From Escherichia coli (GTDB lineage Bacteria; Pseudomonadota; Gammaproteobacteria; Enterobacterales; Enterobacteriaceae), in the NCBI RefSeq assembly GCF_013122565.1, contig NZ_CP053258.1: DNA of 64,000 nucleotides. The stretch is one strand, 5' to 3'. The notes under the pieces were generated by a model that was not told the origin of the DNA, did not search any database, and saw only the letters and a program-made list of their open reading frames with translations. Positions 39,166 to 41,707 of this stretch are shown here, in pieces. The position numbers and the translations under genes are program-made. Position 1 is the first letter of the stretch. Each line of letters begins with the position of its first letter.

Positions 39166-41520
39166 CTATTTTGCAGTCACAACCTGCATGCCAGACGGTT
39201 CATTTTGCAGCGCCAGAGTCAGAACTTCCTCAATGCGCTTCACAGGATGAATGTCCAGATCGGCAATTACGTTGTCAGGAATCTCTTCCAGATCGCGTTT
39301 ATTTTCGAACGGAATTAACACTGTTTTAATCCCGCCGCGATGCGCTGCCAGTAGTTTTTCTTTCAAACCACCGATCGGCAGTACCTGACCACGCAGAGTG
39401 ATCTCACCGGTCATTGCCACATCGGCACGAACCGGGTTACCGGTCAGGCAAGAAACCAGCGCGGTGCACATAGCAATACCAGCACTCGGACCATCTTTCG
39501 GCGTCGCACCTTCCGGTACGTGGACGTGGATGTCGCGTTTTTCGTAAAAATCAGGGTTGATCCCCAGTTTTTCCGCACGCGCACGAACCACCGTTAATGC
39601 CGCCTGAATGGACTCCTGCATCACTTCGCCGAGCGAACCGGTATAGGTCAATTTGCCTTTCCCCGGAACACATGCGGTTTCAATGGTCAGCAAGTCACCG
39701 CCCACTTCAGTCCACGCCAGACCGGTTACCTGACCGACACGGTTTTCGTTATCCGCGCGTCCATAGTCAAAACGCTGAACACCAAGGTAGTCATGCAGGT
39801 TGTCGCCGTTAATTTCGATATGTTTTAATGACTTATCGAGCAGTAACTGCTTAACCGCTTTACGGCACAGCTTGGAGATTTCACGCTCCAGACCACGCAC
39901 GCCCGCCTCACGGGTGTAGTAACGAATAATGCCGATAATGGCGCTATCGTCGACGGTCAGCTCACCTTTTTTCAGTGCATTACGTTCAATCTGCTTCGGC
40001 AGCAGGTGACGTTTGGCGATGTTCAGTTTTTCATCTTCGGTATAACCGGAGAGGCGAATCACTTCCATACGATCCAGCAGCGGTGCCGGAATGTTCATGG
40101 AGTTCGACGTCGCGACAAACATCACGTCGCTGAGATCGTAATCCACTTCCAGGTAGTGGTCGCTGAACGCTACGTTCTGCTCGGGATCCAGCACTTCAAG
40201 CAGTGCAGAGGCCGGATCGCCTCGCATGTCAGAAGACATTTTGTCGATCTCATCGAGCAGGAACAGAGGGTTTTTCACGCCCACTTTCGCCATTTTCTGG
40301 ATCAGTTTACCCGGCATAGAACCGATGTAAGTACGGCGGTGACCACGGATTTCCGCTTCATCACGCACGCCGCCCAGCGCCATACGGACATATTTACGCC
40401 CGGTGGCTTTGGCAATGGACTGACCCAGGGAGGTTTTACCTACCCCCGGCGGCCCAACCAGGCAGAGGATCGGTCCCTTGATTTTGTTGACACGGCTTTG
40501 AACCGCAAGGTACTCAAGGATGCGATCTTTCACGCGCTCCAGACCATAATGGTCGGTATCAAGGATTTCCTGCGCCTGACGCAGGTCTTTTTTGACCTTG
40601 CTACGCGCATTCCACGGCACCTGAACCATCCAGTCGATATAACCACGCACTACGGTCGCTTCTGCCGACATCGGAGACATCATTTTCAGCTTCTGCAACT
40701 CTGCTTCCGCTTTCTCTTTTGCCTCTTTCGGCATTTTCGCCGCATCGATTTTGCGCTTCAGGGCTTCGTTTTCGTCCGGCGCGTCATCCATTTCACCGAG
40801 TTCTTTCTGAATAGCTTTCATTTGCTCATTCAGATAGTACTCACGCTGGGATTTCTCCATCTGCTTTTTAACGCGGTTGCGAATGCGTTTCTCAACCTGC
40901 AGCAGATCGATTTCCGATTCCATCATTGCCATCAGATATTCCAGACGTTCGTTAACGTCGGACATCTCCAGAACGGACTGTTTGTCAGCCAGTTTCAGCG
41001 GCATATGTGCAGCAATGGTATCCGCCAGACGCGCCGGATCGTCGATGCTATTCAGCGACGTCAGCACTTCTGGTGGGATCTTTTTGTTCAGCTTGATGTA
41101 GCCTTCGAACTGGCTGATTGCAGTACGCACCAGCACTTCCTGTTCCCGCTCATCAATGGTCGGCGACTCCAGATACTCCGCCTTCGCAGAAAAGTGTTCG
41201 CCATTGTCAGAGAGCGCAGAAATACGCGCGCGCTGTAACCCCTCGACCAGCACTTTGACGGTGCCGTCAGGCAGTTTCAGCATCTGCAATATAGAGGCCA
41301 CGGTCCCGACGGTGAAAAGATCGTTTACACCCGGCTCATCCGTTGAAGCTTCTTTCTGCGCGACCAGCATAATTTTTTTATCATGGTCCATCGCCGCTTC
41401 CAGACAACGGATAGATTTTTCCCGCCCGACAAATAAGGGGATGACCATGTGCGGATAAACCACCACATCGCGCAGCGGCAATACGGGGATTTCAATGCGT
41501 TCAGAACGCTCAGGATTCAT
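39166..41520 (-). CDS. lon: ATP-dependent protease Lon
   Basis: ORF 39166-41565; internal start gives [44 protein letters not shown]... (784 aa); Walker [10 protein letters not shown], catalytic PKDGPSAG. Confidence 0.97.
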
Positions 41521-41603
41521 AGAGCTCTCTCTTAGTTTAATTTCCGCCAGGTAATCAGATGACACGACTGTGCTTCACGCCATCTATTAACATGTACGTC
41601 AGT

Positions 41604-41631
41604 ATATGGGGATGTTTCCCCCACATTCAAC
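41604..41631 (-). promoter_or_regulatory. sigma32 (heat-shock) promoter of lon
   Basis: Minus strand reads GTTGAAT-14 nt-CCCCATATA about 85-110 nt upstream of the lon start. Confidence 0.7.
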
Positions 41632-41655
41632 GCCGAGAATAGAGGAAAAATTAAA

Positions 41656-41679
41656 GGGGAGATAAAATCCCCCCTTTTT
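41656..41679. terminator. hairpin with flanking A/T runs in the clpX-lon intergenic region (clpX terminator; may also end the antisense sRNA SraA)
   Basis: gggga-gataaaa-tcccc followed by ttttt on the plus strand, preceded by an A-rich run; an sRNA (SraA/PsrA3) is reported at this locus in K-12, recalled from memory and not confirmed from sequence. Confidence 0.55.
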
Positions 41680-41707
41680 GGTTAACTAATTGTATGGGAA
41701 TGGTTAA

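Follow-up and report, generated by a model that had tools for sequence, protein, structure and literature searches.

The window analysed here, a 64,000-nucleotide stretch of Escherichia coli DNA, contains tig, clpP, clpX and lon as four co-directional genes on the minus strand, as judged from the list of open reading frames (ORFs) and the sequence. The clpX and lon genes, the spacer between them and the minus-strand elements within that spacer are as follows.

39166-41520, minus strand: lon coding sequence, with its ATG at 41520-41518 (ORF list)
41521-41707, 187 bp: clpX-lon intergenic spacer (ORF list and sequence)
41521-41598, minus strand: lon 5′ untranslated leader (alignments)
41601-41631, minus strand: lon promoter of the sigma-32 type, with an overlapping sigma-70-like promoter (sequence, scan and conservation)
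41641-41652, minus strand: U-rich tail of the clpX intrinsic terminator, AAUUUUUCCUCU (Term-seq and conservation)
41653-41677, both strands: terminator stem-loop with 11 pairs and a 3-nt loop (terminator scan, folding and covariation)
41708-41710, minus strand: clpX stop codon TAA (ORF list and RefSeq annotation of the identical sequence in MG1655, W3110 and O157)
41708-42982, minus strand: clpX coding sequence (ORF list)

The spacer is a 100% match to positions 458701-458887 of MG1655, and any window position is converted into an MG1655 position by subtracting it from 500408. Among the E. coli records having a match, 5419 of 5425 are at least 99% identical to the spacer, and in about 1% of complete E. 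coli genomes it is not in one piece. Within these 187 bp lie several elements already known from E. coli K-12, namely the clpX terminator, the heat-shock promoter of lon, the SraA RNA and a hot spot for IS186; clpX and lon are the only features that RefSeq annotates at the spacer in MG1655, W3110 and O157. The comparative material consisted of 80 lon loci taken from across the Proteobacteria, in each of which the clpX stop was located, and of an alignment of the clpX-lon spacers of 21 Enterobacterales, reduced symbionts among them. The spacers are 110-240 bp long except in L022 (Budvicia), L053, L060, L069 and L072, where a length of 390-640 bp indicates that something has been inserted. Elsewhere in the window, two plus-strand ORFs (40006-41238, 410 amino acids; 43965-45266, 433 amino acids) lie wholly antisense to lon and tig, and are probably chance antisense frames in these coding sequences and not genes.

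On the minus strand, the terminator stem (41677-41653) reads AAAGGGGGGAU-UUU-AUCUCCCCUUU, includes one G.U pair and is followed by AAUUUUUCC; its G/C core occupies 41656-41674, and A-T pairs extend the stem to 41653-41677. The plus-strand hairpin is the complement of this structure and is followed by CUUUUUGG, so that the G.U pair of the minus strand (41660/41670) becomes an A.C mismatch. On the minus strand the hairpin folds at -15.5 kcal/mol, as against -12.3 kcal/mol for the plus strand (core stem, -11.1 versus -8.3 kcal/mol), and neither strand is exceptional when compared with dinucleotide shuffles (z of -1.8 for the minus strand and -0.6 for the plus strand). Because runs of G and C also pair in the shuffled sequences, these z-scores are indecisive, and covariation was therefore used instead. 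Compensatory changes, in which both sides differ and the pair is kept, occur in 7 of the 11 stem pairs among the 21 Enterobacterales; none of 500 shuffles reached the observed covariation score, and controls in which the pairing partner was slid gave far fewer paired cells.

Read in the clpX sense, the 11-pair stem and the tail AAUUUUU have the make-up of an intrinsic terminator, and the minus-strand tail is conserved, with 6-9 T per 10 nt in 20 species. The dominant 3′ end on the clpX strand in published Term-seq data is at MG1655 458758, which is window position 41650, with 2765 reads in LB at an OD of 0.4, 3013 reads in M63 and an intrinsic terminator score of 6.2 against a threshold of 3; the same 3′ end is flagged as lying within a Rho region too (Adams et al., 2021). 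This identifies the hairpin at 41653-41677 as the intrinsic terminator of clpX. Minus-strand Rfam matches in this region (sraA reversed, DapZ and the L20 leader), all with E of at least 1, were rejected as merely the terminator hairpin.

The lon promoter begins 22 nt from the terminator stem and about 85 nt upstream of the lon ATG. Its sigma-32 elements are a -35 element, (G)TTGAAT, at 41631-41625, a 13-nt spacer and a -10 element, CCCCATAT, at 41611-41604; a sigma-70-like promoter, TTGAAT-18-TATACT, overlaps them, sharing the -35 element and placing TATACT at 41606-41601. From this arrangement, lon transcription would be expected to start at about 41595-41599. The lon (capR) gene is a heat-shock gene and a member of the sigma-32 regulon in E. 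coli, and the arrangement GTTGAAT-13-CCCCATAT matches the sigma-32 consensus, CTTGAAA followed after a 13-15-nt spacer by CCCCATnT; no difference in sequence from the known E. coli lon heat-shock promoter was seen. Read on the plus strand, ATATGGGG and CATTCAA are invariant columns in 21 of 21 Enterobacterales, and 46 of the 76 clpX-lon spacers from Proteobacteria contain TTGAA-N-CCCCAT, among them those of Vibrio, Pseudoalteromonas and Colwellia. The preliminary description had placed a hairpin with A/T runs on both sides at 41656-41679, had suggested that it could terminate both clpX on the minus strand and a short plus-strand transcript, and had set the lon sigma-32 promoter close to it. 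The hairpin was found there, its termination of clpX accords with sequence, covariation and the published 3′ end, and the promoter was borne out by the invariance of its motif among the Enterobacterales and its recurrence beyond them.

Downstream of the promoter, the lon leader contains two conserved blocks, ACCTGGCGGAA (41552-41542) and CTAAGAGAGAGCTCT (41535-41521), the second directly 5′ of the ATG. Of the 15 nt of CTAAGAGAGAGCTCT, 10 do not vary among the 21 Enterobacterales and another 3 reach at least 90% conservation; ACCTGGCGGAA, about 20 nt further upstream, is well conserved too, and the conservation of both exceeds what a ribosome-binding site needs. The motif AGAG...CUCU could form a 4-bp hairpin across the Shine-Dalgarno region of lon, and Vibrio species retain GCGGAAGAGAGA at a different spacing. 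To judge from these alignments, the conserved end of the leader may be a translational control element of the heat-shock gene. The middle of the leader (41553-41585; orthologous positions in L010-L015) is variable, and the hairpin that it can form differs between genera, being GAUGGCGUG...CGUGUCAUC in E. coli and CUCGUG-UUU-CACGAG in Yersinia, Rahnella, Brenneria and Photorhabdus, which suggests that the position of this hairpin is conserved and its sequence is not. A Rho termination region has also been mapped inside the lon leader, at MG1655 458831 (window position of about 41577), with a Rho score of 1.78 and a significance of 7.7e-8 (Adams et al., 2021). This region could serve either to clean up read-through from clpX or to attenuate lon.

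The spacer between the -35 and -10 elements of lon carries a further element.

41609-41621, both strands: GGGG-N-CCC(C) palindrome in the lon promoter spacer; IS186 hot spot and RF02029 5′ hairpin (see below)

E. coli B strains are deficient in Lon on account of an IS186 insertion in the lon promoter. BL21(DE3) has a 1350-bp insert between window positions 41609 and 41621, with GGGGAAACATCCC duplicated on both flanks, that encodes a transposase of the IS4-like IS421 family (IS186-type). The target in BL21(DE3) lies within GGGGAAACATCCC(C), a palindrome of the GGGG(N6-7)CCCC type used by the element, whereas the same site in the window is intact and uninterrupted. A fresh IS186 insertion adjoining sraA and the lon start site has been described in phage-resistant MG1655 (2026; PMC12844343).

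The elements described above are read on the minus strand or on both strands. The plus strand of the same spacer carries the following.

41587-41616, plus strand: candidate sigma-70-like SraA promoter, with TTAACA at 41587-41592, an 18-nt spacer and GATGTT at 41611-41616
41592-41687, plus strand: match to Rfam RF02029 (sraA sRNA), covering model positions 1-95 of 95 (covariance model)
41675-41679, plus strand: TTTTT run, the putative U-tract for plus-strand (SraA) termination (sequence and terminator scan)

At 106.7 bits (E = 2.2e-18), the RF02029 match exceeds the gathering score of 56, and the model is above cut-off, again antisense in the clpX-lon spacer, at 14 other Enterobacterales loci; the genera represented are Escherichia, Citrobacter, Enterobacter, Klebsiella, Superficieibacter, Mangrovibacter, Yersinia, Rahnella, Brenneria, Pantoea and Acerihabitans. 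In the literature, SraA (psrA/t15) is located between clpX and lon (PMC3384567), and the clpX 3′ end is annotated as "antisense to sraA, G0-8861", the latter being an EcoCyc identifier (Adams et al., 2021). SraA was counted as detected under all conditions in a 2025 study of E. coli, and changes in its expression have been reported in transcriptomes of E. coli and Yersinia ruckeri; a screen for biofilm and motility effects found no phenotype when the RNA was overexpressed. The window agrees with the SraA of E. coli (psrA3, t15; RF02029) in locus, strand and sequence, with no sequence difference. An SraA/PsrA3 RNA had been suggested for this locus beforehand, as a plus-strand transcript of roughly 60 nt expected to end at about 41680; the plus-strand match and the literature uphold this placement of SraA, and the expected end agrees with the 3′ boundary of the match (41687). 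The annotated K-12 gene is presumably 57 nt long, corresponding to 41624-41680, and is thus shorter than the match to the Rfam model. The RNA itself was reportedly observed in experiments by Argaman and colleagues in 2001. No sraA feature is present in the RefSeq records of MG1655, W3110, O157 and BL21, an absence that is uninformative because G0-8861 is apparently an EcoCyc-only entry without a b-number. SraA is, in short, a catalogued RNA, and the case for its independent reality and function is thin.

Plus-strand transcription would probably depend on TTAACA-18-GATGTT, the sole candidate promoter found, which has 8 of 12 consensus matches in a relaxed scan, is below the threshold of the standard scan and lies within the lon promoter on the opposite strand. 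A start near 41623 is predicted from it, which coincides with the beginning of the sraA gene as presumed above. Conservation of this candidate is limited to Escherichia, Citrobacter, Enterobacter and Superficieibacter, and species with a higher promoter score tend to have a better T-run on the plus strand (Spearman 0.67, p = 0.001, in a statistic that ignores phylogeny). At the other end of the putative transcript, an A-rich run (41646-41655) precedes the hairpin and TTTTT follows it, the plus strand reading GGGGAGAUAAAAUCCCC and then CCUUUUUGG, and the terminator scan calls the hairpin on both strands; the element is therefore bidirectional, a word that describes its sequence and not a measured activity. 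Bidirectional intrinsic terminators, composed of an A-tract, a G/C hairpin and a U-tract, have been described from end-mapping studies in E. coli. The clpX hairpin shares their symmetric build, the stem being followed by a T-run whichever strand is read, but differs from them in that the flanking protein genes are co-directional and not convergent, the only convergent partner being the SraA unit, and in that its two strands are unequal, with G.U facing A.C and a better tail on the clpX strand. With its near-symmetric order of A-run, G/C stem and T-run, the terminator could also halt polymerase that arrives on the plus strand, and such termination is plausible given that five U follow the stem. 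The full curated Term-seq list for three conditions includes no 3′ end on the sraA strand (Adams et al., 2021), and no start site on this strand was found in the supplements of Ettwiller 2016, RepRanger and NAR 2025.

If these negative results were taken at face value, together with the missing RefSeq feature and the failure of the standard scan to give a plus-strand promoter, the locus might produce no plus-strand RNA of any consequence. In that case the hairpin would be a one-way clpX terminator, in which the upstream A-run just lengthens the stem, and "SraA" would be an early prediction, made from a promoter-like site and a terminator within a conserved spacer and sustained by annotation and by pervasive or mis-stranded reads; that the opposite strand can account for all of the conservation would fit with this. 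However, the experimental report of 2001, the EcoCyc entry and the detection of SraA in all conditions of the 2025 study speak against it, and the five-U tract right after the G/C stem would be, on paper, a competent terminator. The absence of the RNA is accordingly regarded as highly improbable.

Two small ORFs in the spacer were also considered and rejected. A minus-strand ORF of 32 amino acids, opening at the TTG of the -35 element, starts upstream of the predicted lon transcription start, and a plus-strand ORF of 16 codons was noticed by eye from the ATG at 41592; no ribosome-binding site was seen for either, and the aligned sequences vary freely across both.

A greater challenge comes from the idea that SraA is a genuine regulatory RNA under selection of its own, acting either by pairing in trans or as a cis antisense to the clpX 3′ end and to the lon promoter and leader, in which case the hairpin would be truly bidirectional. 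The high RF02029 scores across many genera of Enterobacterales and the expression changes in E. coli and Y. ruckeri would fit with this idea, and in most members of the Escherichia-Citrobacter-Enterobacter group the plus-strand T-run has 7-9 T per 10 nt and accompanies the conserved TTAACA-18-GATGTT. What has been conserved, however, coincides with elements of the neighbours. There are 17 invariant columns within 41592-41687, of which 15 constitute the two blocks of the lon promoter (its -10 and -35 elements) and 2 belong to the terminator hairpin. In the unpaired body at 41631-41645, which is the sole possible site for a base-pairing seed in the 57-nt SraA, conservation stops at the genus level.

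The two helices of the RF02029 model also behave differently. The 3′ helix, which is the terminator, shows compensatory change in 7 of 11 pairs as described above, whereas the 5′ hairpin, in which the complement of CCCCAT is paired with the lon promoter spacer, shows changes on both sides in 0 of 9 pairs and otherwise only one-sided changes. The lack of compensatory change in the 5′ hairpin is explained by its 5′ arm, which coincides with the invariant -10 element of the sigma-32 promoter. The perfect GGGG/CCCC palindrome is confined to Escherichia.

The terminator, in turn, favours one strand. Stem pairs that are discordant between the strands are G.U on the clpX strand and A.C on the sraA strand in 7 species, the E. 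coli mismatch being one case, and the reverse occurs in none. In the 10 nt after the G/C core, the clpX strand has an average of 8.05 T and the sraA strand one of 6.15 (Wilcoxon p = 0.0004). Of the two, the clpX strand better preserves both stem and U-tract. RF02029 nevertheless scores in genera whose plus-strand tails are poor (3-4 T per 10 nt in Yersinia, 4 in Rahnella, and within 3-5 in the isolate labelled Klebsiella), and it still scores in Yersinia and Rahnella, yet the candidate plus-strand -10 element lacks its final T there. Taken together, these patterns suggest that what is conserved in the sraA family is mainly the lon promoter and the clpX terminator seen in mirror image, and does not reflect selection on the RNA.

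One pattern departs from such a mirror image. On the plus strand of the 5′ hairpin, C or U stands opposite the four invariant G of the -10 complement in 80% of cells, and 20 of 21 species have a pyrimidine facing G at the two inner pairs. A plus-strand hairpin under weak conservation would show just such a pattern, which counts both for a regulatory SraA and against a pure mirror-image reading. The pattern is not explicable from the promoter alone, because it is missing in more distant sigma-32 lon promoters. In window coordinates, the positions in question are 41619-41620 (A2 columns 159-160), which are plus-strand pyrimidines in 20 of 21 Enterobacterales and not in remoter gammaproteobacteria; these pyrimidines may be partners for the GGGG of a plus-strand RNA, or else a promoter feature specific to the lineage. 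When this pattern is set against the ownership of the conserved columns, the 5′ hairpin without compensatory change, the unconserved single-stranded body, the A.C mismatch in the E. coli plus-strand stem, the high scores despite poor tails, the lack of an sraA-strand 3′ end in the curated Term-seq list and the absence of a biofilm or motility phenotype on overexpression, a regulatory SraA under its own selection appears unlikely, though the least so of the alternatives.

There are good grounds, by comparison, for regarding the spacer as a packed and already characterised minus-strand junction, in which SraA is an antisense by-product with little or no independent function, and this explanation is considered quite likely to be correct. 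The clpP-clpX transcript ends at the Rho-independent terminator, with its stem at 41677-41653, its U-rich tail and its 3′ end at 41650. Transcription of lon then begins anew from the sigma-32 promoter, whose -35 element also serves the sigma-70-like promoter, and the resulting leader is about 78 nt long. These two steps are solidly supported by sequence, conservation and the published 3′ end. SraA would be delimited, in E. coli and the species nearest to it, by a weak promoter on the plus strand and the shared hairpin, and would run from about 41623 to about 41680. The RNA is most likely a low-abundance antisense by-product or, at most, a local cis-acting transcript.

The position of the candidate SraA promoter face-to-face with the lon sigma-32 promoter in the Escherichia-Citrobacter-Enterobacter group raises a further possibility, namely that the locus works there as a sigma-70 occlusion switch and not as a source of a base-pairing sRNA, which is regarded as a long shot. 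If it were true, the two holoenzymes would be mutually exclusive at the site, and SraA transcription, ending at the shared terminator, would restrain heat-shock initiation at lon at low temperature.

Under the preferred explanation, that of a minus-strand junction with an antisense by-product, the sraA family carries a caution for the annotation of small RNAs, in that an RNA family may score high across genera just from lying opposite a promoter and a terminator that are themselves conserved. Since the conservation of the promoter and terminator is seen in antisense, a match to the sraA family of Rfam in a new genome should be read as "clpX-lon junction" and not as "functional sRNA". The same overlap affects how phenotypes are to be read, because a deletion of sraA also takes out the lon promoter and the clpX terminator.
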